From: an uncultured Gammaproteobacteria bacterium
GTDB taxonomy: Bacteria; Patescibacteriota; Microgenomatia; Daviesbacterales; UBA10151
DNA: 64,000 nt
Direction: 5' to 3'
Assembly (NCBI GenBank): GCA_964649615.1
Contig: CAZYPW010000006.1
Span: forward strand, 12,635 to 76,634
The notes beneath the pieces were generated by a model that searched no databases, was not told where the DNA came from, and worked only from the letters and a program-made list of their open reading frames with translations. Numbering within the stretch: the stretch's first letter is position 1; each line of letters begins with the position of its first letter. Below, one piece after another: positions 9,271 to 64,000 of the stretch. A program made the position numbers and the translations under genes.

Positions 9271-9768
9271 CTAGGGTTTTCTCAGTGATTTTAAGATATC
9301 TACATTTTCTTTGTCTGGACCATTATCTGCAAAACCTGGGACTTCTAAAATAAATGGTAGCTCTTTTAAGGAAGGATTATTTAATAAATTCTCAAAGCCC
9401 TCTCTGCCTATCATTCCCTCCCCTATATTAGCATGCCTGTCTCTTTTAGAACCTAACTCAAATTTAGAATCATTAGCATGCACTACTGCTAAATTTTCTA
9501 GCCCTATCTCTTCCTAAAATTCTTCCAAAGTAGATTTTAAGCCAATTGGAGTTTTTATATCATAGCTTGAGGTGAAAGCATGGCAGGTATCTAAGCAAAC
9601 CTTAACCGTATTCCCACTTCCGATGTGGGAACGCACTCCTTTGCCTGCGATCGCATATGATTTTGTCAACACTTCTGCAGCTGCTAAATTCATGGCATAA
9701 ACTAACCATTCTATAGATTTTTGTAGGTGAGCAGGATTAGTAGAAACATGAGCTCCTACCTTTGTCAT
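9271..9768 (-). pseudogene. nfo: Endonuclease IV (nfo) remnant with internal deletion and frameshift
   Basis: The N-terminal ORF (9514-9768) has MTKVGAHVS and VCLDTCHAF but lacks about 130 core residues. The C-terminal motifs HANDSKFELGSKRDRHANIGEG are in another frame (9271-9483). The palindromic element at 9611-9631 lies inside. Confidence 0.55.
9611..9631. repeat. Family-1 palindrome TTCCCACTTCCGATGTGGGAA
   Basis: Inside the nfo remnant. Read as SHIGSGN on the minus strand. Confidence 0.9.
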
Positions 9769-9925
9769 AGAGCTAGATTATATCGAACACCGTATTTTTC
9801 TGGGTTAGTCTTTAAATTATCCATAGAAGTTTCCCAGCCTGCAAATTGGGGATTATTATTGATTACTTGGGCAAATCTTTTTTGTAGTTTTCAGATCAAA
9901 TTGCATTGACAACTAAAATTACCTA

Positions 9926-10978
9926 ATGTACTATGGGCAATACTGCTCTTCTGATATGGCCAAAATTGACTTAACTATTCCTTCCCTAGGATCTAGATTT
10001 GTTGATATTAGAGAAACAATTTCAGGTGATTCTTTTAATTGGAGTTGGACTAGGCCGCTGTCTCAGGTGGTTTTTTTGGCAATTCACCACACAGCTGGCC
10101 CAGACAGCCAAACCCCAGAACAAATTGCTAACTTTCATATTAGCTCTAATGGTTGGGGTGGAATTGGTTATCATTTTCTGGTTGACAAAAATGGGATTGT
10201 TTATTATGTGGGTGATATTTCAACAGCCAGGGCTAATGTAGCTAATTTAAATGACCAGGTTATTGGGATTTGTTTGATTGGCAGTTTTATGTCTGGAAAA
10301 GAGCCTACTGATGCCCAGATTAATTCTGCTAAAATCCTGTGTGATTTTTTTATTAATAATTATCCTGATTTAGCTAATTTAAATTCCTATGATCAGGTTA
10401 AAGGTCATAAAGAGCTTCCAGGCCAATCAACTGCTTGCCCAGGGGAAACATGGCCTTTATGGAAAACTAAGATTACCTCAGCCCCGATTGAATCGGGGTC
10501 AGGCAGCCCTACTCCACTTCCTACCTCAACTCCAGTAAGCGATAGAGGTGCCAAAATTACAGAAAGCTATAGAAAAGTATTAGGCAGGGATCCAGATATG
10601 GGTGGGCTGCAAACTTATACCAACGGGCTGTTGAGCATTGATCAGATAGTTTGGTCTATGGTGGCCTCAGAGGAGCATCAAAATTTAATAATGCTGGCTA
10701 AAGAAGCAGAAGATTTGAAAAACCAGGTGGATAACATGCAGACCTCTTTAACTTCTGTAAATCAACAATTGCTGATTTTGCAAGAAAGCCTAAGAGACAA
10801 AGATGAAGAAATTAACCGCTTGAGAGCTCAAAGCAGCCACGCTCCCAGCAATGGCAGCCCCCAACCTCCTAAGAGTGTGGATAATACCTTGACTATCGCT
10901 GATCTTTTTATTAATTTATACAAGTTCATATTTCCGTCCAGAAAGGAAGCCCCGATTAAATCGGGGTTGATTAAATAG
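9926..10978 (+). CDS. N-acetylmuramoyl-L-alanine amidase (Amidase_2/PGRP) with DUF4214-like region and coiled-coil tail
   Basis: VFLAIHHTAG and GHKELPGQSTACPG Zn-amidase motifs. KVLGRDPDMGGLQTYTNGL matches DUF4214. C-terminal heptad-rich region. Confidence 0.75.
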   Translation: MYYGQYCSSDMAKIDLTIPSLGSRFVDIRETISGDSFNWSWTRPLSQVVFLAIHHTAGPDSQTPEQIANFHISSNGWGGIGYHFLVDKNGIVYYVGDISTARANVANLNDQVIGICLIGSFMSGKEPTDAQINSAKILCDFFINNYPDLANLNSYDQVKGHKELPGQSTACPGETWPLWKTKITSAPIESGSGSPTPLPTSTPVSDRGAKITESYRKVLGRDPDMGGLQTYTNGLLSIDQIVWSMVASEEHQNLIMLAKEAEDLKNQVDNMQTSLTSVNQQLLILQESLRDKDEEINRLRAQSSHAPSNGSPQPPKSVDNTLTIADLFINLYKFIFPSRKEAPIKSGLIK

Positions 10979-15470: not shown

Positions 15471-16403
15471 CTATGGGGTTATTTTTAAGGCTGATTTGAT
15501 AATTTTATCTAAGAGTTGGGGAAATTCTAAGCCAAAAGCTTGAGCTGCTTTGGGCATTAAGCTTTGAGAGGTCATCCCTACCCCACAAGGAGGATTAACT
15601 TCTAACACAAATGGAGTGTTATTTAAAACAATCATATCTGTTCTGGAATATGGGTTAAGAGATAAAGTTTGGTGAAGTTTTAAAGCAATTTGCTGGGCTC
15701 TATTTTTAGTCTTTTCATCCAAAGATGGAGCTCCTACTATTTCTTTGCTTTCTCCACTATATTTATTTTTATAATCAAACCAGCCTTTATCTGGTGGAAT
15801 TATTTCTATAACAGGCAAAGCTTGATTGGAAAATACCCCTACAGTAATTTCTATTCCTTTAACATATCTTTCCACTAAAAAATAATCATCTAAGGAAAAA
15901 ATCTTTTTCACCAAAGGATTTTTTAAATCTTTTTCAGAAAGTAAAATCACTACTTCTTTAGATGAACCACCTCTGGCTGCTTTTAGCACACAAGGAAATC
16001 CAAACTTTTTAATATCCAGAGTATTTTTTACAACTTTCCACTCTGGCTTGGGGATTTCATTTTGGTCACAAAACTGATTAAACAGGATCTTATCAAAAGC
16101 TATTTCAGTAGATTTTGGGCCACAACCCACAAAAGGTTTATTTAATTTTTTCAGGAAAGTATAAAGAGTGCCATCCTCCCCTTCTTTACCATGAATCACA
16201 GGAAAGATTAGATCAAAATCTTGTGAGATTTTTTTAAGCTCAGAAAAGCCTTTTTTTAAATCAAAAAGCTTAACTTTATAAGCGGAGCTTACAGCTTGCT
16301 GATATCCCACCTCTTCCAGGCCCTTTTTAACATTTTCAGCAGAGATTAAAGAAATCTTTCTTTCAGAAGATGTTCCCCCAGTTATAACTAATATTTTTTT
16401 CAT
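15471..16403 (-). CDS. ddl: D-alanine--D-alanine ligase
   Basis: N-terminal MKKILVITGGTSSERKISL and an ATP-grasp C-terminal half. Confidence 0.85.
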   Translation of the reverse strand: MKKILVITGGTSSERKISLISAENVKKGLEEVGYQQAVSSAYKVKLFDLKKGFSELKKISQDFDLIFPVIHGKEGEDGTLYTFLKKLNKPFVGCGPKSTEIAFDKILFNQFCDQNEIPKPEWKVVKNTLDIKKFGFPCVLKAARGGSSKEVVILLSEKDLKNPLVKKIFSLDDYFLVERYVKGIEITVGVFSNQALPVIEIIPPDKGWFDYKNKYSGESKEIVGAPSLDEKTKNRAQQIALKLHQTLSLNPYSRTDMIVLNNTPFVLEVNPPCGVGMTSQSLMPKAAQAFGLEFPQLLDKIIKSALKITP

Positions 16404-17563
16404 ATAACTATTCTCTTTGTAGATTCTGCTAAATTAACTAGCAGTTCATAAGGAATGGTTTGGCAGATTTTAGCACAGTTTAAAATAGAATTTTTGCCCC
16501 TTGGATTATCGGAATAAACTATTACTTCTTGTCCAATATATGGTTTAGATACTTTGGTAATATCTATGGTGGTAATATTCATGCTGACTCTGCCTATGAT
16601 TGGACATTCAATACCATCAACAAAAACTATCCCTTTGTTAGATAACCTCAAATCAACTCCCTCATAGTAACCTAGTGGCAATATACCTACTGTCAGATTT
16701 CTTTTGGCAGTATAAAGACTCTCGTACCCTACCTTATCCCCTTTTTTTAGTTCTTTAATTTGAATAATCTTAGTTTTTAATTTTAAAACAGGTTTTAAAT
16801 CTACATTCCCACTTCGGATGTGGGAATTCGATATGCCATAGAGAGCAAGACCTACTCGGGCTATATTTACGTTGCAACCTCGAAGGTGGAATCGTAATAA
16901 TCCATCTGAGTTTTGGATATGAATATACTTTGGATTAAAACCAGCCTTCCTAACAATTTGTTGTACGTGCTTCAAATTGTTAATTTGCTTAAGATTCAAT
17001 CCATTCTTGGGATCATCTGCACAAGCAAAATGTGATATCAAACCTTCCACTTTTAAGTATTTTAGCCCTTTTAGTTCTTCTAAAAATAGTGGTAAATCTT
17101 TCATTTGAATGCCTTCTCTGCTCATACCAGTATCTACAAAAATATGAACACTACATTCTGGTTGATATTTACTTAAAACTTTAGCTGTTTTCAAATCATA
17201 TAAAGCAAAAGAAAAAGGCAGTTTTTTAACTTTAAAATTTTCAGGATTTGTATATCCCATTATTAAAATTTTAGTTTTAATCCTTGCTTTTAGTAATTCA
17301 TATGCTTCATATAAAGAATCAACACAAAAAAATGGTGCATTAACTTGGTCTAAAATTTTTGCTATCTCAACTATTCCATGCCCATATCCATTACTTTTTA
17401 TGACAGGGGCAACTTTAATTTTTTTAGTGCGCGAAGCGCGCGAGCTTTGCTCATTTAAAGAAGATAAATATTTGTAGTTATGAATTAAATTTGCTTTCGA
17501 CACCTCAATTAGATTTAAGGTTTGGTAATCTTTTTTAAATATTTTTAGAATTTTGCTTAACAT
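16400..17563 (-). CDS. alr: Alanine racemase
   Basis: PLP-lysine motif VIKSNGYGHG. Carries in-frame element insertions at 16806-16826, 16871-16890 and 17427-17447. Confidence 0.85.
   Translation of the reverse strand: MLSKILKIFKKDYQTLNLIEVSKANLIHNYKYLSSLNEQSSRASRTKKIKVAPVIKSNGYGHGIVEIAKILDQVNAPFFCVDSLYEAYELLKARIKTKILIMGYTNPENFKVKKLPFSFALYDLKTAKVLSKYQPECSVHIFVDTGMSREGIQMKDLPLFLEELKGLKYLKVEGLISHFACADDPKNGLNLKQINNLKHVQQIVRKAGFNPKYIHIQNSDGLLRFHLRGCNVNIARVGLALYGISNSHIRSGNVDLKPVLKLKTKIIQIKELKKGDKVGYESLYTAKRNLTVGILPLGYYEGVDLRLSNKGIVFVDGIECPIIGRVSMNITTIDITKVSKPYIGQEVIVYSDNPRGKNSILNCAKICQTIPYELLVNLAESTKRIVI
16806..16826. repeat. Family-1 palindrome
   Basis: In alr. Read as SHIRSGN. Confidence 0.9.
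16871..16890. repeat. Family-2 palindrome CAACCTCGAAGGTGG
   Basis: In alr. Read as FHLRGCN. Confidence 0.6.
17427..17447. repeat. Family-5-like GC hairpin GTGCGCGAAGCGCGCGAG
   Basis: In-frame in alr (SSRASRTKK). Confidence 0.6.
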
Positions 17564-17997: not shown

Positions 17998-20352
17998 ATG
18001 ACTTTTGAGGATTTAAGAAAAAAACATCCTGAGTTTATATATCATGGGTTTGAAAAAAAATTTGAAGATCAAACATTAAAAATCTATTTTGATTTTGAGA
18101 TATCTCCAAACATTAAATTCAGACCGGAAATTATTCTCCCAAACGTGTTCCCACATCGGATGTGGGAAGGCAAATTGGATAATTTGGTTTTTAATTTAGG
18201 AATGGTTGAGCTGATAAGTTACTGGAAAGCAACTTGTTCTCCAAAAATTACTATCAAAGCAGGTTTTTTAGATCAGGAACAAATTAAATTTTGGAAAAAA
18301 CTTTTAATAAAAGGCCTGGGAGAATTTTTTTATACAAACAGAATAGATTTTACCCAGGATGGGCTAGTTAATTTTGAAGTACGTTCCCACATGTCAAGTG
18401 GGAAGCCATTTGAGGGGATTTTGAAAGATAGAGATTTAATACTTGTTGGTGGAGGTAAGGATTCTGTTGTTACTTTGGATTCTATTTCCAAATCAGGTAA
18501 AGAATTTAACTGTCTGCTTTTAAATCCAACAGATGCAGCTATTAAAATTGCAGAAATCGGTGGGTGTAAAAATCCAATAATAGTGAAAAGAACAATAGAT
18601 CCTAAACTTTTGGAATTAAATGAGCAGGGTTATTTAAACGGCCATACTCCTTTTTCTGCATATCTTGCGTTTTTATCAATGCTATCTTCTGTAATTTATG
18701 ATTATAAAAATGTTGTTGTTTCTAATGAGTCCTCATCTAATGAAGGAAATGTGATTTGGATGGGTAAAGAAATAAATCATCAGTATTCTAAATCAGAGGA
18801 ATTTGAAAAAGACTTTAAAGAATATAGTCAAAAATATCTAGCTCCTGTTAATTACTATAGTTATTTAAGAGAATTAAATGAATTGGAAATTGCCAGAATT
18901 TTTTCCAACTTAGAAAAATACCACAAGGTTTTTAGAAGTTGTAACAAGGGTTCAAAACAAGGGAGTTGGTGTGGCAAGTGCTCAAAATGCCTATTCACTA
19001 ATTTAATTCTTTATCCGTTTTTAGGAAAAAAAATAGAAAGAATTTTTGGCAAAGATTTACTTGATGATGAAACTTTATCTCCAGTTATGGAAGAGCTTTT
19101 GCATTTGCCGGGTAAATTTAAGCCGTTTGAATGTGTTGGCACAAAAGAGGAAATTGAATATGCAATGTTGCTGGGCATTTTAAGAAGCAAGAGAAAATTA
19201 TTAGAAAGATATAAAGATCAGATATCAATCCTAATTTTGGGAATGGGCAGAGAAGGAATAGCAACAAGTAATTTTTTGCAAAAAAATAACATAAATTTCT
19301 CAACCTCTGATCAAAAAGAGGGGAAAAATTATCTTGATAAGTTAAAAGATTATGACGTGATTATTAAATCTCCCGGCATCCCCTATTTGATAGAAATTAA
19401 AAAAGCCAAAGAAAATGGAAAAATCATTTCATCTAGCACGCAAATTTTTTTTGATCTTTGCCTTGGGAAAATAATCGGCGTCACCGGTACCAAGGGCAAA
19501 AGCACCACCACATCCATGATTTATGAAGTCTTAAAATCAGGAGGCTTAGATGTTTACCTGGTGGGGAATATTGGTCAGCCAGCGCTGGATTTATTAGATA
19601 ATCTTAAGAAAGATTCTATAGTAGTTTATGAATTATCTTCATTCCAGCTAGCTGATCTTAAGAAAAGTCCTCAGATTGCAGTGATAACCAATATTTATCC
19701 GGATCATTTGGACTGGCATGGCAGTTTTGAAGATTATAAAAAAGCCAAAGAAAATATCAGTAGGTTTCAGACAAAAAATGATATTCTTATCTCCAATAAA
19801 AGAGGTGCTGAAGCTGCAAAAATTATTGGAAAATTATTTAAAATAAGTGAAGAAAAAATAAACAAAGCAATTAAGAATTTTAAGCCACTCCCACATCGGT
19901 TAGAATTTGTTGCAGAAAAAAATGGAATTAAATTTTATAATGATTCCCTGGCAACTAATCCCCATGCCACCATTTTTGGGTTAAAGACTTTAGGAGAAAA
20001 AGTAGAGACTTTAATAGCCGGAGGGCTTGACCGCGGGGTTGATTATTCCATTTTAGGACCGGTAATTGCCAATTCAAAAATAAAAAATCTAATTTTATTT
20101 CCTGATACAGGTAAAAAAATAGGAGAGGTCGTCAGTTATCAGCCCGCTTCGCTGCGAGGCGAGTCATCAGCTATCAGACAATTTCATGTTAATAATATGG
20201 AAGAGGCTGTTAAAATTGCTTATGAAAATACTTCCCCTGGAAAAATTTGCCTGATGTCCCCTGCCTCAGCCAGTTTTAATATGTTCAAAGACTATGAAGA
20301 TAGAGGAAATCAGTTTAGGAGTTGGGTTGCCAGATTAGGAAGAAGACACTAG
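17998..20352 (+). CDS. murD: Fusion protein: N-terminal PP-loop-like ATP-pyrophosphatase-type domain plus C-terminal MurD-type Mur ligase
   Basis: The C-terminal 400 aa have GVTGTKGKSTTTSMI (P-loop), NIGQPALDLL, DHLDWHGSFEDY. The N-terminal 400 aa have LVGGGKDSVVTLD (SGGxDS-like) and WCGKCSKC. Two in-frame palindromic elements at 18148-18168 and 18384-18404. Confidence 0.7.
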   Translation: MTFEDLRKKHPEFIYHGFEKKFEDQTLKIYFDFEISPNIKFRPEIILPNVFPHRMWEGKLDNLVFNLGMVELISYWKATCSPKITIKAGFLDQEQIKFWKKLLIKGLGEFFYTNRIDFTQDGLVNFEVRSHMSSGKPFEGILKDRDLILVGGGKDSVVTLDSISKSGKEFNCLLLNPTDAAIKIAEIGGCKNPIIVKRTIDPKLLELNEQGYLNGHTPFSAYLAFLSMLSSVIYDYKNVVVSNESSSNEGNVIWMGKEINHQYSKSEEFEKDFKEYSQKYLAPVNYYSYLRELNELEIARIFSNLEKYHKVFRSCNKGSKQGSWCGKCSKCLFTNLILYPFLGKKIERIFGKDLLDDETLSPVMEELLHLPGKFKPFECVGTKEEIEYAMLLGILRSKRKLLERYKDQISILILGMGREGIATSNFLQKNNINFSTSDQKEGKNYLDKLKDYDVIIKSPGIPYLIEIKKAKENGKIISSSTQIFFDLCLGKIIGVTGTKGKSTTTSMIYEVLKSGGLDVYLVGNIGQPALDLLDNLKKDSIVVYELSSFQLADLKKSPQIAVITNIYPDHLDWHGSFEDYKKAKENISRFQTKNDILISNKRGAEAAKIIGKLFKISEEKINKAIKNFKPLPHRLEFVAEKNGIKFYNDSLATNPHATIFGLKTLGEKVETLIAGGLDRGVDYSILGPVIANSKIKNLILFPDTGKKIGEVVSYQPASLRGESSAIRQFHVNNMEEAVKIAYENTSPGKICLMSPASASFNMFKDYEDRGNQFRSWVARLGRRH
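18148..18168. repeat. Family-1 palindrome TTCCCACATCGGATGTGGGAA
   Basis: In the PP-loop::MurD fusion. Read as FPHRMWE. Confidence 0.9.
18384..18404. repeat. Family-1 palindrome, variant B TTCCCACATGTCAAGTGGGAA
   Basis: Same gene. Read as SHMSSGK. Confidence 0.9.
20143..20166. repeat. Family-5-like CCCGCTTCGCTGCGAGGCGAG
   Basis: In-frame in the MurD part (PASLRGES). Shares CCGCTTCGC and GAGGCGAG with the 7553 copy. Confidence 0.6.
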
Positions 20353-21684
20353 CTTTCTGGGAAGCTTATCTATATCTCCTGCTCCCATAAAAAATACCAC
20401 ATCTCCATTTTTAACTTCTGCTTTTACCTCATTTAAGATTTGATTAATTGGTACCATTTTTACGCTATTGCGCACTTTTGGTACCACTTCACTATTTATA
20501 CTTTCCACAAGCTGTTGGCTGTTTACCAAACCTGTATCTACTTCTCTGCTGGGATAAATATCTGTAATTATGATTTTATCTACAGGAAGTTCCTTAAATA
20601 CTTTGACAAAGTCATCAAAAAGGGCTTTAGTTCTTGAAAACATGTGAGGTTCATAAATAAGAATTATTCTGTTATTAGGAAATTTTTGTCTGGCAGCTTC
20701 CATGGTAACTTTTATTTCTGTTGGGTGATGACCAAAATCAGAATATACTTTTGCATTATTATAATCCCCTAAATATTCAAACCTCCTGCCAACTCCAGAG
20801 TAGTTTTGCAGGCTTTGTCTAATAGTTTGTGGATCAATTTCTAGAAGTAGACCAACCTGCATAGCTGCTTGAGCATTTAACTTATTAAATTCTCCAGGGA
20901 TTTGCATTGGAAAATGCAGCTCATTCCTAGAATAATCTAAATATTGGACAAAATCATCATGATCGGAATGTTTTTGTCTAGGAGTTTTCATTACATGTTT
21001 AACTACTTCAGCTACATTTGAGTCAGATAAATTTGCCACAATGGTTTGTTTGCTTTGCAAAAGAAATTTTTCAAAGCTTTCTTTATAAGATTCAAAATCC
21101 TTAAAATATTCCGGATGGTCCATCTCTATATTTGTAACAACTGTAATATCCGGTTTAAGATGCAAAAAATTATCATTAAACTCATCTGCTTCAATGGCAA
21201 AGTACCCACGGCCGTTAGTAGTTTGTCGCTGGATTCTATAGTTTGTGCCCCACTTTGGGTGTATTGCTCCAAGTAAAACCGTTGGGTCTAAATTAGCATC
21301 TTCCAGCATTTGGGCAATCATGGCTGTAGTAGTTGTTTTGCCATGTGTTCCGCAAACAGCAATTACAAACTTATCATTAGTTAAATATTCACCTACAAAC
21401 TGTTGCCAAGTTATTACAGGAATTTTTTTTTCTTTGGCTGCTAGAAGTTCTGAATTATTTGGATCCAGTGAAAAAATTGCCGGTGTAACTGCCAATATAT
21501 CTACCTTCCCACTTCCGATGTGGGAAGCTGAATGGCCTTTTTCTAACTTTACACTTCCGATGTGTAACGTAAACTTGTTATTGGGTTCTAAATCACAACC
21601 AGTTATTTCATAACCTTGAGCTTGAGCGATAGCAGCAGCAGCAGACGCTCCAGACCCACCAATTCCTAAAAAATGAATTTTCAT
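20335..21684 (-). CDS. murC: UDP-N-acetylmuramate--L-alanine ligase
   Basis: Start MKIHFLGIGGSGASAAA at 21684 (the 78-aa upstream extension in the ORF track is rejected). Mur ligase GTHGKTTTTAM. In-frame element at 21506-21526 plus a degenerate copy at 21551-21569. Confidence 0.85.
   Translation of the reverse strand: MKIHFLGIGGSGASAAAAIAQAQGYEITGCDLEPNNKFTLHIGSVKLEKGHSASHIGSGKVDILAVTPAIFSLDPNNSELLAAKEKKIPVITWQQFVGEYLTNDKFVIAVCGTHGKTTTTAMIAQMLEDANLDPTVLLGAIHPKWGTNYRIQRQTTNGRGYFAIEADEFNDNFLHLKPDITVVTNIEMDHPEYFKDFESYKESFEKFLLQSKQTIVANLSDSNVAEVVKHVMKTPRQKHSDHDDFVQYLDYSRNELHFPMQIPGEFNKLNAQAAMQVGLLLEIDPQTIRQSLQNYSGVGRRFEYLGDYNNAKVYSDFGHHPTEIKVTMEAARQKFPNNRIILIYEPHMFSRTKALFDDFVKVFKELPVDKIIITDIYPSREVDTGLVNSQQLVESINSEVVPKVRNSVKMVPINQILNEVKAEVKNGDVVFFMGAGDIDKLPRKLVSSS
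21506..21526. repeat. Family-1 palindrome (with degenerate second copy at 21551-21569)
   Basis: In murC. Read as SHIGSGK, and the degenerate copy as LHIGSVK. Confidence 0.85.
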
Positions 21685-21748
21685 TGCTAAATTATATGAT
21701 TTTTGATCTTTTAATGCCAGAAAATTAGCAAAAAGGACAGGTGCCAAG

Positions 21749-21792
21749 TCTTCGACTCTGAGGTCTGAGACCTCATCACTCAGACTCGAAGA
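21749..21792 (-). terminator. Rho-independent terminator-like hairpin downstream of the regulator gene
   Basis: TCTTCGACTCTGAG...CTCAGACTCGAAGA inverted repeat with an inner GAGGTCTGAGACCTC palindrome, followed on the minus strand by CTTTTTGCTAATTTT. Confidence 0.5.
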
Positions 21793-21805
21793 GCTATTCC
21801 ACCTT

Positions 21806-22360
21806 TCAGGTGGTCTGAGTTGAATTGTCAGATATAGGGGGACTGAATGAGTAACCAATGTTCGTGTGTCCAATAATAATAGAATGTTGTTGTTTGTCTC
21901 TAGAGTTTCCATCTCCAAGCTTTCGTCTTAAGTGGGATACGCTACTTCTAAGATATGCTAAATCATCTGTAATGTCGCTATCAGGGTTTATACACCGTAA
22001 TAGAACTGAGTAAGGAATCCTCTTTGTTGGGTTTGCAATTAAAGGATGGAATAAAGCCCCTTCTACTTTGGATAGTATTACGGTTGATTGATCAGGTTTT
22101 GTAACCTCTTTTATTTCAGGATCATAACTCCAACCACCATATTTATAAATAGGGAGGGAAAGACCCAAAATCATCTCTCTATGTGCGCTTGTAGCGCCCC
22201 AAAATCTTAGAAAATGACCATCTTCTAGAATTTTACTTAAAAGTTCCTCAGGTGTTAATAAGCCGAATGTTTGGGCGACTGCTCTGTAGGCTTCGAGTAT
22301 CTGTCTTCTTGCGTGAGATAATGGATCTTCCTGTGGAGTTTTTTCTCCTTCAATGCGCAT
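21806..22360 (-). CDS. Winged-helix (OmpR/PhoB trans_reg_C-like) DNA-binding protein without receiver domain
   Basis: C-terminal LAYLRSSVSHLRRKLGDG...HSIIIGHTNIGYSF resembles the OmpR C-terminal wHTH. The N-terminus has no receiver-domain Asp pocket. Confidence 0.5.
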   Translation of the reverse strand: MRIEGEKTPQEDPLSHARRQILEAYRAVAQTFGLLTPEELLSKILEDGHFLRFWGATSAHREMILGLSLPIYKYGGWSYDPEIKEVTKPDQSTVILSKVEGALFHPLIANPTKRIPYSVLLRCINPDSDITDDLAYLRSSVSHLRRKLGDGNSRDKQQHSIIIGHTNIGYSFSPPISDNSTQTT

Positions 22361-24430: not shown

Positions 24431-25105
24431 TTATTTTTGAGGCATGACCAGCATTAAATATTCTAAAATTGCCCTAATATTAACATTCTGATTTTGCCAC
24501 TGTTCAGCCTGCATAAGCTCTTTTAAAAGGTTTACGTTCCCACTTGACATGTGGGAAGCTAGATTTTTATGGAAATATGTAACCAGGGCAGGTAATAATT
24601 CTGCTCTATCTTTTAATTTTTCTATATATTCAAACCTTTGCTCAATACTGAAATCTAATAATTTTTCTATATCTTCTAAGTAGTTGGTAGTTGGCTTGCC
24701 TCGCTGAGTTGGCGAAGCGGGTAGTTGGTAGTTGGTAGTAGAAAGATGCTCAATATGGCAGCGTGACAGGACTGTTGGTAAAAATTTAGCATCAGAATCT
24801 GCGCCTAAAATAAATAAACCATTCTCAGGTAATTCCTCCAGAGTTTTAAGTAAAGCATTTTGGCCCTCAGGAGTTAAATCTGACCCATTTTCTAAAACCA
24901 CTACCCTGCCTTTGGCTGAGTATGGTTTTAAAGAAAAATGTTCTTTGATTTTTCTGGCTTGTTCTATGCCTAATTTGGAATCAACTGGATAGTATAAAAC
25001 ATCTGGATGGTTCGTGTTCCCACTTCCGATGTGGGAAGCTATAGTTTGTTGAATTTCCTGTTTCCTATCTTCTAAATTAGGTGAAATTAAAAGCCTTGCA
25101 ATCAT
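24431..25105 (-). CDS. holB: DNA polymerase III delta-prime-like subunit
   Basis: VVVLENGSDLTPEGQNALLKTLEE and the LSRC sensor motif. Three in-frame repeat insertions (24537-24557, 24681-24740, 25017-25037). Confidence 0.7.
   Translation of the reverse strand: MIARLLISPNLEDRKQEIQQTIASHIGSGNTNHPDVLYYPVDSKLGIEQARKIKEHFSLKPYSAKGRVVVLENGSDLTPEGQNALLKTLEELPENGLFILGADSDAKFLPTVLSRCHIEHLSTTNYQLPASPTQRGKPTTNYLEDIEKLLDFSIEQRFEYIEKLKDRAELLPALVTYFHKNLASHMSSGNVNLLKELMQAEQWQNQNVNIRAILEYLMLVMPQK
24537..24557. repeat. Family-1 palindrome variant B
   Basis: In holB. Read as SHMSSGN. Confidence 0.9.
24681..24740. repeat. GTAGTTG tandem heptamers flanking GC hairpin CTTGCCTCGCTGAGTTGGCGAAGCGG
   Basis: In-frame in holB (TTNYQLPASPTQRGKPTTNY). 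Confidence 0.7.
25017..25037. repeat. Family-1 palindrome
   Basis: In holB. Read as SHIGSGN. Confidence 0.9.
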
Positions 25106-43860: not shown

Positions 43861-45897
43861 CTAATCTGGATTTACTTCACGAGTAATATTTTGTAATCTT
43901 GCCTTAAGTAAGGGATATTTGTCAAGAGAAGGATCCAAATTTAGCAAATCTGCAGCTGCTTTTTTAGTTTTTTCAACCATTTGTATATCAGAAAAAGAAG
44001 CTATCTTAAATTCAAATCTGCCGGATTGCCTGACCCCAAAAATTTCTCCCCCTCCCCTGATTTTTAAATCAAGCTCTGCTAATTTTAATCCATCAAAGGT
44101 GTTTTCCATATATTTTAACCTGCGCCTATCACTTGACACATCCGATGTGTAAAGTAAACAGTAGGACTCTTTGGTACCCCTGCCTACTCTGCCTCTAAGC
44201 TGATGCAGTTGGGCAAGCCCAAACCTTTCTGCTCCCTCAATTACTATAATAGTGGCATTGGGAATATCCATGCCTACCTCAACAACAGAGGTGGAGACTA
44301 AAATTTGCACTTTACCTTCTTTAAATTCTGTTAAAACCTGCTCTTTTTCTTTACTCTTCAATCTGCCATGCAGCAAGCCTAATTTAAGGTTGGGGAAAAT
44401 TTTACCTAATCTTTCGTACTCCACCTTAACAGCCTTGACTGTAGTTAATGTTTCAGAGGCTTCTATAAAAGGTGTGATAATATATGCCTGATCCCCCTCC
44501 TTTACCCTTTTTTCTATAAATTTGTAAGAATCAGCCCTCTTTTTTTCTGGAACCAAATAAGTTTTTACCACAGGCCTGTTTTTAGGCATTTCATTGATCA
44601 CAGATAAGTCCAAATCACCATACAAAGTTAGAGCTACAGTTCTGGGGATGGGGGTAGCAGTGGTTGTTAAAAAGTGAGGTGGTTTGGCTTTTGCTCTCAA
44701 GATAGTTCTCTGTTCCACCCCAAACCTTTGCTGTTCATCAACTACTACCAGTCCCACATCGGCAGCGATTAGTTTTTCAGAAAGAAGAGCGTGAGTACCG
44801 ACAATTACCTCACTATCTTTGGCTTCTTTTTTAGATCCTGTATATATCCCCACTTTTATTTCAAAAGGTTCTAAAAGATTGGAAAGGGTAGAAAAATGCT
44901 GGAAAGCTAAAATTTCTGTAGGAGCCATAAAAAGAGTTCTTAATTTATTTAAGTGAATAAGGTAGGCAATGATTGCTACCACCACTGTTTTTCCTGATCC
45001 TACCTCACCCTGGATCAGCCTATTCATTGGTTGGCCCTTTTTCAAATCCTCAATTATTTCTGCAATCACTTTTTTTTGAGCGGAGGTCAGTTTAAATGGT
45101 AAGGATTTTAGAAAATAATTTAGATCATTTTTATTAATATCTAGTGGTGCTATGGGAGGTTTTTTCTTCCATTCCATCCTTGCTTTTTGGGTGGCTAAAG
45201 AAATGTAAAACAATTCATCAAAACCTAATCTTTCCCTGCTCTTTTCTATATCATCCCAACTTTCTGGGTAGTGAATCTTCCTGATAGCATCTTTTAAACT
45301 CAGCATTTCTCCTCTAATAAAACCAGGCATAGGATCTGTTAGTTGATTTTCTACTTGCGGCAGTAGTTGATCGATTTTAGTTCTTACCCATTTTGAGCTT
45401 AGCCCTTCAGTTTCCGGATAAACAGGGATTAATCCTCCTGTATGTAACCCTTTTTGATCCGTGTTCCCACTTGACGAGTGGGAACGTAGATTGATGTCAA
45501 GTTTTTCCCATTTCGGTACGATAATGGAAAGTCTACTTTTGTATTTGGTTAATTTTCCAGAAATTTGTAGCCTGTCACCTGTTGCTATTTGCTTAGTCAG
45601 CCAGCTCTGATTGAACCAGGTCAGATTTATCGGTGAGGTGCCATCATTAAATATTGCCTGGGTTAATATTTTTCTGGACCTGGTGTAAATATTTTTAATA
45701 GACCAGATTTCGCCTTGCAAGGTGACTACTTGCCCAATTTGAGTCTCTTTAGCAGTGGAGATTTGGGAAAAGTCATCATACCTGAAAGGAAAATGGTAAA
45801 TTAAATCCTCCACAGTATTTAGATTTAATCTGCCCAGTTTATATAAGAGGCCTGGGCCGGTACCAGCCAGTTTGGATAAAGGAGTGTTAAGTTCCAT
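43861..45897 (-). CDS. recG: ATP-dependent DNA helicase RecG
   Basis: Wedge domain, helicase motifs GEVGSGKT, DEQQRFG, QLRGRVGRG. In-frame elements at 45464-45484 and a degenerate copy at 44130-44154. Confidence 0.9.
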   Translation of the reverse strand: MELNTPLSKLAGTGPGLLYKLGRLNLNTVEDLIYHFPFRYDDFSQISTAKETQIGQVVTLQGEIWSIKNIYTRSRKILTQAIFNDGTSPINLTWFNQSWLTKQIATGDRLQISGKLTKYKSRLSIIVPKWEKLDINLRSHSSSGNTDQKGLHTGGLIPVYPETEGLSSKWVRTKIDQLLPQVENQLTDPMPGFIRGEMLSLKDAIRKIHYPESWDDIEKSRERLGFDELFYISLATQKARMEWKKKPPIAPLDINKNDLNYFLKSLPFKLTSAQKKVIAEIIEDLKKGQPMNRLIQGEVGSGKTVVVAIIAYLIHLNKLRTLFMAPTEILAFQHFSTLSNLLEPFEIKVGIYTGSKKEAKDSEVIVGTHALLSEKLIAADVGLVVVDEQQRFGVEQRTILRAKAKPPHFLTTTATPIPRTVALTLYGDLDLSVINEMPKNRPVVKTYLVPEKKRADSYKFIEKRVKEGDQAYIITPFIEASETLTTVKAVKVEYERLGKIFPNLKLGLLHGRLKSKEKEQVLTEFKEGKVQILVSTSVVEVGMDIPNATIIVIEGAERFGLAQLHQLRGRVGRGTKESYCLLYTSDVSSDRRRLKYMENTFDGLKLAELDLKIRGGGEIFGVRQSGRFEFKIASFSDIQMVEKTKKAAADLLNLDPSLDKYPLLKARLQNITREVNPD
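44130..44154. repeat. Degenerate family-1-like palindrome ACTTGACACATCCGATGTGTAA
   Basis: In recG. Read as YTSDVSSD. Confidence 0.6.
45464..45484. repeat. Family-1 palindrome TTCCCACTTGACGAGTGGGAA
   Basis: In recG. Read as SHSSSGN. Confidence 0.85.
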
Positions 45898-48866: not shown

Positions 48867-48872
48867 TCCGTA

Positions 48873-48893
48873 TTCCCACTTGACATGTGGGAA
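48873..48893. repeat. Family-1 palindrome variant B immediately 5' of the RAYT gene
   Basis: Lies between the stop at 48866 and the RAYT ATG at 48915. Confidence 0.9.
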
Positions 48894-49352
48894 CGTAGTT
48901 GGGACTATGGAATTATGGCAAATCCTCCTTTTGCTTCTGGCGAGTTTTATCATATTTATAACCGTGGTGTAGAAAAAAGAAAAATTTTTCTTGATAAGTG
49001 GGATTATTTAAGATTCTTAGAGACCCTAGATTTTTACCGCAAATCCCCCAACCCAATGAAACTATCGGATTTTAGAAGAGGTGTAATTAAACTTAAAAAG
49101 AATGAAGATCAGAAGGAAATAGTCAGAATTTATTGTTATTCTCTAATGCCGAATCACTTTCATCTGTTAGTTCAACAACTGGAAGAATCTGGAATTACTC
49201 AATTTATGAGAAAATTATCTGATAGTTATACCAGGTTTTTTAATACCAAGTATGAGAGGGTGGGTTCTCTTTTTCAGGGAAGCTTTAAGGCAAAATTAAT
49301 TGAAACTGATGAATATTTACTTCAGCTTTCAAAATATATTCATCGAAACGCG

Positions 49353-49373
49353 TTCCCACTTAAGATGTGGGAA
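49353..49373. repeat. Family-1 palindrome TTCCCACTTAAGATGTGGGAA inside the RAYT ORF
   Basis: Read as FPLKMWE. Confidence 0.85.
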
Positions 49374-49566
49374 GGTAAAGTTTATCCATATTCCTCCTAC
49401 GGGTATTATCTAAACGGGGAGAAACATCTATTCTGTGACACAGAATTTATAGGGGCATTTTTTTCTAAAACAAATCCTAAACTAAGCTATAAATCTTTTG
49501 TAGAGGAAACAGAGTTTGGGGATCCAATAGCAGTTTATAATCTCTCCATAGATAATGATGAATGCG

Positions 49567-49587
49567 TTCCCACATCGGATGTGGGAA
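49567..49587. repeat. Family-1 palindrome at the RAYT 3' end
   Basis: Encodes the C-terminal VPTSDVGS plus the stop. Confidence 0.9.
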
Positions 49588-49599
49588 GCTAAATAATAG

Positions 49600-54141: not shown

Positions 54142-56372
<2,231 letters not shown>

Positions 56373-57980: not shown

Positions 57981-58001
57981 TTCCCACATCGGATGTGGGA
58001 A
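57981..58001. repeat. Family-1 palindrome, intergenic copy
   Basis: Lies within the atpD/atpC island. Confidence 0.9.
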
Positions 58002-60559: not shown

Positions 60560-61486
60560 ATGGTAAAAGCACCTGATCTTTCGATAATAATTCTTAACTA
60601 TAATGTTAAGGAACTATTACTCAATTGTTTAGAGTCTATTTTTAAAAACAAGGGTAAGGAGGATAAGTGGCAGGTAGTTGTGGTGGATAATGCTTCAATA
60701 GACGGCTCAGTAGAAGCAGTTAAACAACTACGTTCCCACATGTCAAGTGGGAACACAGTTGATATTATAGAAAACAGGGAAAATATGGGATTTGCCAATG
60801 GTAATAATGTGGCTATTCCTAAAGTTAAAGCGCCTGTAGTTTTATTTTTAAATCCAGATACCAAAATTGTGGGAGATGTGATTCAAAAATGTTTAGATAA
60901 ATTGCTTTCTAATCCAGATCTCGGGGCAATTAGCCCAAGAGTAGAATTGCCCGATGGCAGATTGGATTACTCCTGTCACAGAGGTTTCCCTACTCCCTGG
61001 AATTCTTTGATGTATTTTTCAGGAATTTCAAAGTTATTTCCTAAAATTAAATTATTCTCAGGGTACACTGCTTCATATTTAGATACTCAGACAGAACATG
61101 AAATAGATTGTATTACTGGAGCTTTTTTGATGGTTAGAAAAATTGCTGGGGATCAAATTCACTGGTGGGATAAGGATTATTTTTTTAATGGTGAAGATAT
61201 TGAATTTTGTTTTTCTTTAAAAGAAAAGGGTTGGGAAATTTATTATTACCCAAAAGTAAAAATAATCCACTACAAGGGTTCTTCTTCAGGATTGTGGTCT
61301 ACTGCTAAAATTCAAGTTTCTAAAGAATCCAGGTTGAAATCCGCAAAACATTCCACAGGAGCCATGAGAATTTTTTATATGAAGCATTATTATAAAAAAT
61401 ATCCGGTTTTTTTCAGGGACTTGGTTTTGCTGGGAATAAAGTCGCTGGAGCATTACAGAAAGGCAAAAATATGGATCTCTCGGTAA
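60560..61486 (+). CDS. Glycosyltransferase family 2
   Basis: LSIIILNYNVKELL, VVDNASIDGS, and a DxD-like region. In-frame palindromic element at 60733-60753. Confidence 0.8.
   Translation: MVKAPDLSIIILNYNVKELLLNCLESIFKNKGKEDKWQVVVVDNASIDGSVEAVKQLRSHMSSGNTVDIIENRENMGFANGNNVAIPKVKAPVVLFLNPDTKIVGDVIQKCLDKLLSNPDLGAISPRVELPDGRLDYSCHRGFPTPWNSLMYFSGISKLFPKIKLFSGYTASYLDTQTEHEIDCITGAFLMVRKIAGDQIHWWDKDYFFNGEDIEFCFSLKEKGWEIYYYPKVKIIHYKGSSSGLWSTAKIQVSKESRLKSAKHSTGAMRIFYMKHYYKKYPVFFRDLVLLGIKSLEHYRKAKIWISR
60733..60753. repeat. Family-1 palindrome variant B
   Basis: In the GT2 gene. Read as SHMSSGN. Confidence 0.9.
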
Positions 61487-62370
61487 TTATTTTAAGTTAT
61501 AATACTAAGGAAATAACGGATGAATGTTTAAATAGACTTCAGCAATCAGTCGCCAGCTGTCAGACAAAATTAAAAAATAAAATAGAAGTAATTGTTTTGG
61601 ATAATGCATCCAGTGACGGGTCTTTGGAAATAATCAAGCAGAATCACCCCTGGGTAGAATTGATAGAATCCAAAGAAAATACCGGTTTTTCTAAGGGTAA
61701 CAATTTAGCAATAAAACAGTCCATCAACCCGTATGTTTTATTTCTTAACTCTGATGCCTATGTGGAAAATGATACCCTGGAAAAGGCTATGCAGTGTTTT
61801 AAAAATCCTGATTGTGACGCTTTAGGCCCAAAATTAGTTTTTGAGAATGGGGACTTTCAGCCATCAGCCGGTAATTTACCAAATCCTTTTAATATTCCTC
61901 TTTGGATTTTGGGATTATCTTTGATTCCAGGTATAAATAAGCTAAATTCCTACCATCCAAAGCATAAAGAATTTTTTAATAAGATGAGACAGGTTGGTTG
62001 GGTGACCGGGGCTTTTTTTATGCTTAGGAAAAAGGTTTTAGATAAAGTAGGCTTATTTGATGAAAATTTATTTATGTATAGTGAAGAAATTGAGCTTTGC
62101 AAAAGGATTAAGAACGCAGGATTTAAAATTTGGTATATTCCAACGATTATCGTTACCCATCTTCACGCTGCTTCATCTAGTTTTGACACCTCCCTTGCAT
62201 TTATAAATGAACTAAAGGGCCTTAAATATTATTTTGGCAAATACTATCCTTCTTGGTATTTTTTAGTCAAATTATTTTTAATATTGGGTTTGATTTTAAG
62301 AGTTATAGCTTTTTCGCTCCTAAAACCTTCAAGAGCCAGGGCGTACATAAAAGGTTTATCAGTTATATGA
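61471..62370 (+). CDS. Glycosyltransferase family 2
   Basis: LSVIILSYNTKEIT...VLDNASSDGS. Confidence 0.8.
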   Translation: MDLSVIILSYNTKEITDECLNRLQQSVASCQTKLKNKIEVIVLDNASSDGSLEIIKQNHPWVELIESKENTGFSKGNNLAIKQSINPYVLFLNSDAYVENDTLEKAMQCFKNPDCDALGPKLVFENGDFQPSAGNLPNPFNIPLWILGLSLIPGINKLNSYHPKHKEFFNKMRQVGWVTGAFFMLRKKVLDKVGLFDENLFMYSEEIELCKRIKNAGFKIWYIPTIIVTHLHAASSSFDTSLAFINELKGLKYYFGKYYPSWYFLVKLFLILGLILRVIAFSLLKPSRARAYIKGLSVI

Positions 62371-64000
62371 AATTAGCAATTATTACTGTTAATTATAATG
62401 GAAAAGATGATAGTCTAGAGTTTTTAGGTTCCTTAAAAAAACTACGAACAACACACCGCCCCTTCGGGGCAACGAACTACGAACTACGAACTATATTAGT
62501 GGATAATGCATCAAGCGATGAATCAGTTTCTGCTATTCATAAGCAATTTCCTGAAGTGGATATTTTACAAACTGGTTCTAATTTAGGATTTTCCGGAGGG
62601 TTTAATAAAGGTATAGAATACGGTCAAATCTGGGGAGCAGATTATTTCCTACTAATAAATAATGATTGCTTAATTAAAGATTCTGGTTTATTAGATGAGT
62701 TAATTAAAACATTAAAATCAGATGAAAAAATTGGTTTAGTTTCTCCGAAGATTTATTTTGAAAAAGGATATGAATTTCACAAGAATAGATATTCTAAACA
62801 GGATTTAGGTAAAGCGATTTGGTTTGCCGGAGGAGAATTTGACTGGAATTTTGTGGGAAATAAACACAGAGGAATAGACGAAGTTGATTCTGGAAAATAT
62901 GATTTAGTAGAGCAACAGAATATTTTTTCCGGTGCTTGTGTACTTATAAAAAAAGAAGTATTTGAAAAAGTTGGCATGTTTAATGAAGATTATTTTTTAT
63001 ATTTTGAGGACTCTGAGTTTGCCAAAAGAGCAACTGATGCTGGATTTAAAACTTATTATAATGGCCAGGTTTCCATCTATCATAAAGTCTCCCAGTCAAC
63101 TGGAATTGGTTCTAAAATTACAGATTATTATCACACCAGAAACAGGTTAATTTTTGGAATGAAGTATGGAGGTTTAAGAACTAAATTCGCATTACTCAGA
63201 GAAGCCATAAAATTATTCTTATTTGGTAGGCCCGTTCAAAGGCAAGGAATATTAGATTTTTATTTAGGAATAAGAAGAGGTGCCAACGTAATCCACCTGG
63301 AGGGTGGTCTAGGTTGGCACCCTCAAGTAGAATATCCGCTTAAACTATCTATAGGTATAGTAAACTATAACACTGCTGATTTAACCAAAAAATTATTAGA
63401 CAGCATTTTTGAAACACGTTCCCACATGTCAAGTGGGAATACGGATGATGTGGAAGTAATTGTCCTAGACAATGGTGATATTGATCCCTGTAAAGACAAA
63501 ATAAAAGAATATTTGCCTAGGATAAAATATCTTAAAAATGAAGAAAATGAGGGATTTTCCAAAGGTTATAACAAAACAATTAGATACTCTTTGGGTGAGT
63601 ATTATTTAATGCTAAATTCTGATATTGAAGTATTGGAGAATGGGTTATCTGAATTAGTAAGGGTGGAAGATGAGTTTAAAGGTGAAGCAGTGTTGGGTGG
63701 GAAATTAGTTTTTCCAGATTTAAGCAAGCAAGATTCTGCATTCCATTTACCCACTTTAACTGGAGCATTTAAGGAATATTTTTTAGCAAAAAAAGGATCT
63801 TATTTTATGTATCAGCCTGAAAGTGATAAACCCTCAAAAGTGGATGGGTTGGTAATGGCTTGTTTGTTAATTCCTAAGAAAGTATTACAAAAAGTAGGGC
63901 TTTTGGATGAAGGAACTTTTATCTTTTTTGAGGATATTGAATATTGCAGGAGGTTGAAAAAATTTGGTGTACCACTATATTTTGTACCATCTGCCAAATT
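62367..64000 (+). CDS. Tandem two-domain GT2 glycosyltransferase, 3'-partial (runs off the window; absent from the ORF track for that reason)
   Basis: ATG overlaps the upstream TGA. The first GT2 domain is MKLAIITVNYNG...LVDNASSDES. The second is LSIGIVNYNTADL...VLDNGD. The frame stays open to nt 64000. Repeat insertions at 62456-62492 and 63419-63439. Confidence 0.7.
   Translation, partial: MKLAIITVNYNGKDDSLEFLGSLKKLRTTHRPFGATNYELRTILVDNASSDESVSAIHKQFPEVDILQTGSNLGFSGGFNKGIEYGQIWGADYFLLINNDCLIKDSGLLDELIKTLKSDEKIGLVSPKIYFEKGYEFHKNRYSKQDLGKAIWFAGGEFDWNFVGNKHRGIDEVDSGKYDLVEQQNIFSGACVLIKKEVFEKVGMFNEDYFLYFEDSEFAKRATDAGFKTYYNGQVSIYHKVSQSTGIGSKITDYYHTRNRLIFGMKYGGLRTKFALLREAIKLFLFGRPVQRQGILDFYLGIRRGANVIHLEGGLGWHPQVEYPLKLSIGIVNYNTADLTKKLLDSIFETRSHMSSGNTDDVEVIVLDNGDIDPCKDKIKEYLPRIKYLKNEENEGFSKGYNKTIRYSLGEYYLMLNSDIEVLENGLSELVRVEDEFKGEAVLGGKLVFPDLSKQDSAFHLPTLTGAFKEYFLAKKGSYFMYQPESDKPSKVDGLVMACLLIPKKVLQKVGLLDEGTFIFFEDIEYCRRLKKFGVPLYFVPSAK
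62456..62492. repeat. GC hairpin CGCCCCTTCGGGGCAACG plus CGAACTA x3 tandem
   Basis: In-frame in the GT2 gene (HRPFGATNYELRT). Reverse complement of the TTCGTAG array. Confidence 0.7.
63419..63439. repeat. Family-1 palindrome variant B
   Basis: In the two-domain GT2 gene. Read as SHMSSGN. Confidence 0.9.

Follow-up and report, generated by a model that had tools for sequence, protein, structure and literature searches.

A probable REP-type hairpin family with a RAYT-type transposase, read in frame within housekeeping genes of a Daviesbacteria genome

Why should one 21-nt palindrome recur, in frame, within alr, murC, holB, recG, atpG and other genes of a single stretch of bacterial DNA? The stretch, referred to here as the window, comprises 64,000 nucleotides of contig CAZYPW010000006.1 (assembly GCA_964649615.1, positions 12,635 to 76,634), deposited as an uncultured Gammaproteobacteria bacterium and placed by GTDB in the Daviesbacterales, within the Candidate Phyla Radiation (CPR). 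We consider it probable that the repeat is a repetitive extragenic palindromic (REP)-type hairpin family with a Y1/HUH transposase of the REP-associated tyrosine transposase (RAYT) type, and that its in-frame copies have been filtered to tolerant loops and to one reading. A preliminary description of this DNA had likened the repeat to Rickettsia palindromic elements (RPEs), and the likeness holds in that the repeat is short, palindromic and of the REP/RPE type, and lies in frame in housekeeping genes. Overall, its observations are largely correct, with errors of detail, and its interpretation is essentially right, but its novelty was overstated.

The pattern TTCCCAC-N7-GTGGGAA occurs in the window as 15 copies with perfect stems, against 0.17 expected by chance. 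The mismatch spectrum of window sites is bimodal, with 15 sites having no mismatch, none having one and a single site, at 23487 in gyrB, having two. The latter had been counted as a sixteenth copy; a decayed copy is ruled out, since the site encodes a conserved PTTEGGTH motif that is invariant in the 25 gyrB orthologues inspected and is, on this alignment, ancestral sequence. Oriented by their asymmetry, the copies read TTCCCAC-AT-NNN-A(A/T)-GTGGGAA, i.e., an invariant 7-bp stem (TTCCCAC/GTGGGAA) in which an A·A or A-T pair and a T-A pair close a variable 3-nt loop. Loop types in the window are ATGTCAA (5 copies), ATCGGAA (4), the fully palindromic ATCGGAT (3) and 3 singletons. Folded as single-stranded DNA (ssDNA), the 21-nt unit has an energy of -5.6 to -9.3 kcal/mol (z -2.8 to -5.4). 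The flanks are less conserved than the core, with the consensus 5'-YTA-SS-[core]-SS-TAR-3'. In 118 pooled copies, SS-TAR lies beyond both arms, with TAG or TAA 2 nt out at 115 of 236 ends. At 7 of these ends GTAG has the canonical REP polarity, at the 5' foot of the hairpin; at 46 it follows the arm on the 3' side after 1 nt. Neither GTAG nor CGTC emerged as a canonical tag of the TTCCCAC element over the 236 ends. All copies in the window are singlets (nearest spacing 214 nt), and their density is approximately 1 per 4.3 kb, versus 1 per 29 kb in related loci bearing murC. Rfam at gathering thresholds gave no family in the window, and ARAGORN gave no tRNA.

Pfam and NCBIfam profiles identify the host genes as alr, a Mur-ligase fusion (2 copies), murC, holB (2 copies), recG, atpG, two GT2 glycosyltransferase genes, an nfo remnant and the Y1 transposase gene (Table 1). 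These are the hosts named previously, except that recG holds one copy instead of two. Where 13 of 16 copies had been placed in open reading frames (ORFs), we find 12 to 14 of 15: the copy at 57981 is intergenic, that at 48873 overlaps the transposase start, and that at 9611 lies in an nfo fragment, which appears to be a gene remnant still holding its element. In the AlphaFold model of AtpG (mean predicted local distance difference test score 69), residues A99-V107 cover the C-terminal end of helix 90-103 and the loop leading into strand 109-114. HolB has only 224 aa, starting shortly before its HPD motif and lacking the N-terminal region of E. coli delta-prime. In the 80 loci orthologous to murC, matches begin at residues 67-81 of its ORF, and nothing corresponds to the first approximately 70 residues.

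Are the repeat-encoded segments insertions, or have resident codons been overwritten? We compared 80 loci containing murC orthologues and neighbouring genes. The PDB homologues at the alr and atpG sites are of the same length as the window proteins or longer, which, together with the first atpG alignments, suggested overwriting without net insertion. For alr, holB and murC, closer orthologues overturn this view, with gains of +15 to +18 nt. The window forms of murC and atpG have a net gain of only +2 aa, so that overwriting partly holds there. At alr, the closest orthologues read ISN------NSNLKP and the window adds TCC CAC ATC CGA AGT GGG between AAT and AAT (+18 nt). At the holB 24537 site, empty alleles read L-P-A-N and are 5 residues shorter, and filled alleles have L-A-[SHMSSG]-N, in which 18 nt separate GCT from AAT. 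The holB site at 25017 is common to many orthologues and has decayed in others, its filled alleles exceeding the empty ones by 5-6 residues. The same gain of 5-6 residues applies to filled alleles of the first site in the Mur-ligase fusion (18148), where orthologues are either 6 residues shorter or have FPHVKWE. MurC has three states: empty (GHxPxHLEG-VDIL), filled (GHxPxHLxSHxxSGNVDIL, +6) and the window form GHSASHIGSGKVDIL (+2), in which the element's His takes the place of the ancestral His. In the sister contig L111, the GT2 site at 60733 is 5 residues shorter and reads I-----YGN, possibly the scar of an element, and locus L142 keeps only the left half of a copy.

From these alignments, the SHxxSGN segments are lineage-specific insertions of 5-6 residues, some of which have been trimmed since; provisionally, 18 nt (TCCCAC-N7-GTGGG) would have been inserted between T and AA. 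The preliminary description had anticipated lineage-specific insertions in loops, which is what we see at alr, holB and murC and in the AtpG model. It had also proposed comparing sister genomes for presence/absence polymorphism; relatives show filled and empty states at the alr, holB and murC sites, and perfect, decayed and short ones at the atpG site. Its figure of 7-8 added residues is too high, given the net 5-6 relative to the closest empty orthologues and the 2 in the window forms of murC and atpG. The clean 18-nt length gains also bear on the idea that the repeat is a motif akin to a DNA uptake signal, built in place by mutation with biased uptake and recombination instead of by insertion. 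CPR bacteria are thought to depend on DNA uptake, comparison with PDB homologues shows no added length at the alr or atpG site, the loop in most atpG orthologues is similarly long and related in sequence, and one filled/empty difference lies on a short imported tract (see below). Nevertheless, we find this idea extremely improbable, as solitary half-sites are not in excess (of 41 occurrences of the stem heptamer in the window, 30 belong to the 15 elements, leaving 11 versus 7.6 expected), the unit is a hairpin with a free loop, and the element brackets a Y1 transposase in many genomes, sister RAYTs having hairpins of their own.

The HUH motif (NHFHLL) and the tyrosine (in SKYIHRN) of this transposase align with those of its homologues; no sequence relative was found in the PDB. 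Three element copies accompany the gene, at its 5' edge (48873), internally (49353) and at its 3' end (49567), and the outer two bracket it, as had been reported. A further 8 loci, from Davies-, Levy- and Shapirobacteria and from mislabelled CPR metagenome-assembled genomes (MAGs), have a transposase of the same clade (64-88% identity) with three element copies arranged in the same way. The internal copy, after YIHRN, is kept in all members of the clade, while more distant homologues have NPVSSYLIEF… where the clade has NAFPLKMWE. A RAYT of 36% identity in a Planctomycetia MAG (L011) has doublets of the same hairpin on both sides, the only locus at which doublets were seen. Seven further Microgenomates RAYT paralogues (35-46% identity) are each flanked by a distinct hairpin: CCGATCC-C-GGATCGG, CCACCT-GGA-AGGTGG, TCAACCCC-A-GGGGTTGA, ACACCC-TCC-GGGTGT, CAACACC-G-GGTGTTG, CTACCTC-G-GAGGTAG and ACACCC-C-GGGTGT. 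Their upstream hairpins begin 26-53 nt before the open frame (5 of 6 at 44-53 nt), and the downstream ones lie within approximately 35 nt after the stop codon. A separate flanking hairpin for each paralogue is the signature of REP/RAYT pairs.

Could the transposase and its flanking hairpins instead be an ordinary autonomous insertion sequence (IS) of the IS200/IS605 type, with the dispersed hairpins as solo ends? The Y1_Tnp domain and the hairpins at both gene ends fit this, as does the syntenic contig L111, which lacks both the transposase and the adjoining 282-aa ORF and in which the 523-aa gene is followed directly by atpB (window 48867-50448 versus L111 6646-6698); judging by this synteny, the locus is an indel between the two contigs. 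However, the window has a single transposase for 15 hairpins, both ends are the same symmetric hairpin and not distinct left and right ends, and TnpB is absent from the window, the 282-aa ORF matching nothing in Pfam or NCBIfam. Moreover, the layout is that of the REP-flanked RAYT genes described in PMC3733652 (Di Nocera, De Gregorio and Rocco 2013). An autonomous IS is therefore very unlikely, and in any case differs from a REP/RAYT system more in name than in mechanism.

What, then, sets the reading frame? Ten window copies lie in sense orientation and in the same phase, read as x-S-H-x-x-S-G-(N/K) with x mostly A or R; 10 of approximately 13 genic copies in the window thus use one of six possible readings, a share far from random. 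Those at 18148 and 49353 read FPxxMWE. Both peptides had been recognised in the preliminary description, which ascribed the choice of frame and orientation to the avoidance of stop codons. Since 5-6 of the six readings of the 21-mer are open, stop avoidance within it cannot yield a frame bias. The third frame had also been said to contain TGA and never to be used, but TGA is present in only one orientation of the GTC-loop form, and this frame is in use at 49567 (the end of the transposase ORF) and within long ORFs of related genomes. Its P-T-x-x-V-G reading is found mainly at C-termini or after a Tyr codon because of the flanking TAR, plus TAC or TAG on the other side; the same flanks likewise account for the transposase ORF ending in an element copy. 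Element orientation tracks the strand of the host gene, flipping repeatedly over the 64 kb, which rules out the replication strand as the cause of the orientation bias. The constraint behind the bias therefore lies with the mRNA or the protein made from it.

Across CPR loci, 119 non-redundant copies were classified, taking ORFs of at least 150 aa (88% of the DNA) as coding. Of these, 44 (37%) are noncoding and 63% genic, which is an approximately 4-fold noncoding enrichment per base. The SH frame accounts for 57 of the 75 genic copies, and 40 of these are in sense orientation. A purely protein-level explanation would have SHxxSGN as a convergent modification or binding motif, with the DNA palindrome incidental; the same peptide is indeed found in ten unrelated window proteins, always in loops. 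This is almost certainly wrong, given that the codons are identical at all sites, synonymous positions included, that the 21-mer also occurs outside coding DNA, in both of the remaining frames and in either orientation, and that the peptide is absent from many functional orthologues.

The element sites combine persistence with turnover. The recG, atpG, murC and holB sites are filled in L111, L132 and many other lineages with differing loops; for example, the recG copy in L111 has a different loop and is read RSHIVSGNT. In pairs of orthologous copies, 14 of 14 stem bases are kept while the flanks are only 65-80% identical, and the loops are either identical or differ at several bases at once, between master types (ATCGGAA, ATGTCAA, ATCGTAA). 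Among 120 AtpG orthologues, 22 have a perfect site, and the others include decayed (ASDLTSGNVV, SSGLISGNSV…) and short forms of 5-6 residues. A rough neighbour-joining tree, built from 75 MurC orthologues after masking the site, implies no fewer than 11 changes for the perfect state and no fewer than 15 for the empty state. The AtpG proteins P0004 and P0012 are 97% identical overall and 99.6% outside the element site, and their DNA is 98.8% identical outside an approximately 105-nt patch centred on the site. Within this patch, the identity of the flanks is 71%, and ASHMSSGNI in one protein stands opposite SQQ--TGDV in the other. Read from the DNA, the filled or empty atpG allele has moved at least once on a short tract imported from a diverged lineage. 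Identical loops make up 21.7% of within-genome pairs and 10.0% of between-genome pairs in a collection scan with part of the loop fixed, which is only suggestive of concerted evolution of loops within genomes.

The same codon positions are also occupied by other repeats. In other lineages, they hold hairpins of families that flank other RAYTs (CCACCCC-G-GGGGTGG, ACACCCC-A-GGGGTGT, CCCACCT-GGG-AGGTGGG, CACACC-TCCA-GGTGTG and GTCCACCT-TCC-AGGTGGAC), and these families too are often intragenic, in the equivalent His frame (xSHLxGG or xHPxG(V/G)). The murC site, for instance, is filled in many orthologues, empty in others and taken by other hairpins in still others. Possible readings of such sharing are a common target preference, a preference for resident hairpins, or conversion.

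This combination of perfect stems and shared sites raises the question of whether the hairpins are functional cis elements under selection in essential genes, with the transposase as a domesticated maintenance enzyme. They might, for instance, be bound by gyrase or by a chromosome-organising protein, or form mRNA structures that affect stability or translation pausing. Such a function would account for the fully conserved stems at orthologous sites, the lack of single-mismatch copies in the window, the hairpins of other sequence in the same protein loops and the internal copy in every member of the transposase clade. We nevertheless think it quite unlikely: no site is indispensable, since each of those examined has empty or decayed counterparts in many orthologues, the density gap between the window and related loci is approximately 7-fold, copies are enriched in noncoding DNA, and some are disrupted by nested insertions. 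A broader proposal is that particular loops of essential proteins have long served as landing pads where the resident hairpin is repeatedly rewritten by RAYT-type enzymes, whether through cassette exchange or through conversion, or else that the hairpins have a selected cis function. We regard this as unlikely. Rewriting of this kind would keep stems perfect, switch loop types and swap REP families, and, if it occurs, CPR genomes would show in-place, sequence-specific rewriting by domesticated Y1 transposases within coding sequence.

Returning to a REP/RAYT family as the probable explanation, we propose the following course of events. By analogy with IS200/IS605 and RAYT enzymes, the transposase would recognise the folded single-stranded hairpin and would cut and rejoin at its foot, spreading copies or replacing residents. 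With approximately 88-90% of the genome coding, most landings would hit genes, and a copy would survive only where a surface loop tolerates it and its reading gives a small polar peptide, (L)(A/R)-S-H-x-x-S-G-(N/K); the P-T-x-x-V-G reading would usually meet the TAR or TAG of the flanks, and the F-P-x-x-W-E reading is bulky. After insertion, sites would become long-lived hot spots whose stems are kept perfect while the loops jump between a few master types. In some lineages, copies would decay or suffer partial deletion and other RAYT/REP families would take the same loops, and filled and empty alleles would be exchanged between lineages via short homologous-recombination tracts. Catalysis would thus fall to the transposase, the peptides are presumably translated, and selection is the likely cause of the frame bias.

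Several observations weigh against this scheme. That the transposase would bind, cut or move the hairpin is argued by analogy, and its only NCBIfam match, to the curated RAYT model NF047646, scores 38.2 bits, below the cut-off of 80. Perfect stems over deep divergence are not predicted for neutral selfish insertion and would need homogenisation or selection. The conserved unit is 21 nt (approximately 31 nt with flanks), versus a net gain of 15-18 nt relative to empty sites. A preference for Ser over Cys at element position 14, considered as proof of translation, is rejected as such: this test for peptide-level selection falls short of significance (p = 0.08), and most noncoding copies likewise have the A·A form. 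Related loci contribute orthologous copies to the counts, which do not represent independent events, the collection scan for TTCCCACATNNNAWGTGGGAA fixed AT…A[AT] and thereby biased the loop statistics, and the imported recombination tract is a single case.

How far does the element extend beyond this genome? A protein named from Candidatus Daviesbacteria matches AtpG of the window at 100% identity, and the next relatives (61-79%) come from Daviesbacteria and Microgenomates. A scan for TTCCCACATNNNAWGTGGGAA with one genome per species gave at least 110 stretches; those listed are mainly from Daviesbacteria, Levybacteria and Shapirobacteria, together with many MAGs labelled "uncultured Gammaproteobacteria" and one labelled "Nanoarchaeota archaeon". 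The transposase is up to 82% identical in the former MAGs. Transfer across phyla to Gammaproteobacteria is ruled out, given that the loci align with Microgenomates DNA over kilobases (67-78% identity to Daviesbacteria or Levybacteria loci) and that one, L068, has the recG element site in common with the window. On this sequence evidence, the loci so labelled are CPR sequences that look mislabelled or misbinned (L001, L002, L012, L017, L022, L025, L032, L036, L038, L041, L064, L065, L068, L074, L081, L095, L096, L099 and L110).

Beyond the CPR, the hairpin is found in large sulfur bacteria and others, namely genuine Beggiatoaceae (L020, L028, L049, L051, L060, L061, L066, L093, L104, L105), Sulfurimonas (L018, L019, L088) and Methylococcaceae (L062, L103), which have repeats of the same 9-bp-stem hairpin, TTCCCACAT-NNN-ATGTGGGAA. 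There its surroundings are different and noncoding (…CTCG-hairpin-TGCA…), a second hairpin, CACCGCGCTGCGGTG, often coming next, and no transposase homologue was found in these 8-kb loci.

Several further repeats were seen in the window and its relatives. The palindromic family CCCCGAT-N3-ATCGGGG is in frame twice in an amidase gene of the window and has 8 more copies in related loci, mostly intragenic. The CCACCTTTCAGGTGG hairpin in the N-terminal part of murC belongs to a family that flanks a RAYT paralogue in L116 and is in frame (xSHLxGG) in several orthologous genes elsewhere. Another hairpin, GTCCCACCTCCGAGGTAGGAG, lies in the gap between a P-type ATPase gene and the nfo remnant and is related to the CTACCTC-G-GAGGTAG family, which adjoins a RAYT paralogue in L009. 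Some TTCCCAC elements have further short repeats nested in their loop or arm, e.g., TTCCCACATC-ACACGTGGGCTAATCGCCCAAG-GAAGTGGGAA, at L070 (approximately 3267, and at its holB site), at the holB site of L159 and at the recG site of L068 (18-nt insert). Finally, repeat-like peptide insertions recur at variable loops (SRSELDSRLRGND, VIPANAGIQ, PRND, AHLRGE..PGSHLGG and LANARPTS…SLVAQNDK), carried by AtpG P0037, P0050, P0095, P0110, P0004, P0032 and others and by MurC in L120/L121 and L153. This suggests that several further repeat families are read through in Microgenomates proteins.

Table 1. Coordinates of the TTCCCAC element copies and associated features in the window.
Feature	Position	Strand	Remarks
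Hairpin GTCCCACCTCCGAGGTAGGAG	9239-9259		
nfo remnant	9514-9777	-	88 codons; matches only residues ~163-203 of endonuclease IV
Element in nfo remnant	9611..9631	-	loop ATCGGAA; read RSHIGSGNT
Amidase gene	9926-10978		contains the two palindromes below
CCCCGAT-N3-ATCGGGG, first copy	10482-10498		read APIESG
CCCCGAT-N3-ATCGGGG, second copy	10950-10966		read APIKSG
Element in alr	16806..16826	-	read NSHIRSGNV; alr 16400-17563 (-)
Mur-ligase fusion gene	17998-20352	+	784 aa; two element copies
Element in Mur-ligase fusion	18148..18168	.	palindromic form ATCGGAT; read FPHRMWE
Second element in Mur-ligase fusion	18384..18404	+	loop ATGTCAA; read RSHMSSGKP; length-variable linker
Element in murC	21506..21526	-	read ASHIGSGKV; murC 20335-21918 (-)
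Hairpin CCACCTTTCAGGTGG	21799-21813		read LRPPERWNS
Element in holB	24537..24557	-	read ASHMSSGNV; holB 24431-25105 (-)
Second element in holB	25017..25037	-	read ASHIGSGNT; just before conserved HPD motif
Element in recG	45464..45484	-	read RSHSSSGNT; recG 43861-45897 (-)
Element at transposase 5' edge	48873..48893	-	first ATG of the ORF (48885) falls within the copy
Y1/HUH IS200-like RAYT-type transposase	48885-49592	+	235 aa; Pfam Y1_Tnp 39 bits (cut-off 23)
Element within transposase gene	49353..49373	-	read FPLKMWE, directly after catalytic-Tyr motif
Element at transposase 3' end	49567..49587	.	palindromic form; last codons VPTSDVGS*; flanking TAA is the stop
Element in atpG	54441..54461	+	read ASHIGSGNV; atpG 54142-55002 (+)
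Intergenic element	57981..58001	.	palindromic form
Element in GT2 gene	60733..60753	+	read RSHMSSGNT; gene 60560-61486 (+)
Element in second GT2 gene	63419..63439	+	read RSHMSSGNT; ORF open from 62226 to window end

These data would extend the range of REP/RAYT systems to the CPR and provide an extreme case, in which most copies of a REP family lie within essential genes and are read in one frame. For annotation and structure prediction in the CPR, loops of 5-10 residues of the SHxxSGN, HLxGG and HPxG types should be expected to derive from repeats and not to be functional motifs. How RAYTs spread or maintain REPs is unsettled. Here, the same codons can be compared in filled, empty, decayed, nested and family-swapped states across hundreds of metagenomic orthologues, from which the insertion target (provisionally …T^AA…) and the rates of turnover could be worked out without cultures. 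The 21-mer is also a useful marker for Microgenomates contigs, having exposed several mislabelled public MAG records.

How does the element compare with known systems? IS200/IS605 elements are autonomous units with distinct left and right subterminal hairpins, usually present in several full copies and often with tnpB; their Y1 TnpA acts on ssDNA hairpin ends, inserting beside a short specific sequence without target duplication. The enzyme here is of the same family and its likely chemistry is the recognition of a folded ssDNA hairpin, but there are no distinct left and right ends, no TnpB and one transposase per many hairpins, the mobile unit being the hairpin. The uptake signal sequences of Haemophilus and DNA uptake sequences of Neisseria arise by substitution without length change, are not linked to a transposase and have no free-loop hairpin. 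They share with the element a short motif that is frequent in genes, with preferred frames, in weakly constrained parts of proteins, at orthologous sites and on recombination tracts; unlike them, the element forms clean 18-nt insertions in alr and holB and has empty versus filled alleles in murC.

RPEs, reportedly described by Ogata et al. in 2000, are likewise palindromic repeats lying in frame in many housekeeping genes of a small-genome bacterium, with peptides compatible with function. RPE-1-type elements are approximately 100-150 bp long and add 30-50 residues, and to our knowledge RPEs have no dedicated transposase. The element described here differs in being 21 nt long, in having SS-TAR instead of CGTC ends, a dedicated transposase and a Daviesbacteria host, and in showing no sequence relationship.

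The closest match is with REP/RAYT systems (REPtrons), which share the short (approximately 20-40 bp) imperfect palindrome in many copies, the Y1/HUH transposase gene related to IS200/IS605 TnpA, single in the window and bracketed by repeats, genome-specific sub-families, and several RAYT clades each with a cognate hairpin. Here, by contrast, copies are mostly coding and are singlets in the window, not REPIN (REP doublets forming hairpins) arrangements; the flanking tetranucleotide is stem-N-GTAG, opposite in polarity to GTAG-stem; the transposase gene has a conserved internal copy and matches the curated RAYT model weakly; and the host belongs to the CPR. The preliminary description knew of no such combination in a small-genome, CPR-like bacterium. 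We found no prior description of RAYTs or REPINs in the CPR in the literature searched; for other phyla, in-frame intragenic REPs with RAYTs are already known. The parts of PMC3733652 consulted describe GTAG- and CGTC-tagged REPs in ORFs of known function in several phyla, many of them in replication and repair genes, sometimes twice per gene and thought to occupy tolerant loops, as well as RAYT genes flanked by REPs. In the same parts, only a minority of units is intragenic, dimers or groups that encode 20-30 residues make up more than half of these, and short Rickettsia RPEs (RPE-4/6) are related to the CGTC class. The hairpins in frame in known genes and the repeat-flanked RAYT genes are therefore common to both; relative to what those parts report, the units here are single, 21 nt long and add 5-6 residues, the end tag is neither GTAG nor CGTC, and sites are shared over deep divergence and reused by other families. 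What is new is thus the CPR/Microgenomates host and some of the properties of the family, distinguished by the dominance of intragenic singlets, the tag polarity, the internal copy in the transposase gene, and the persistence and reuse of sites.

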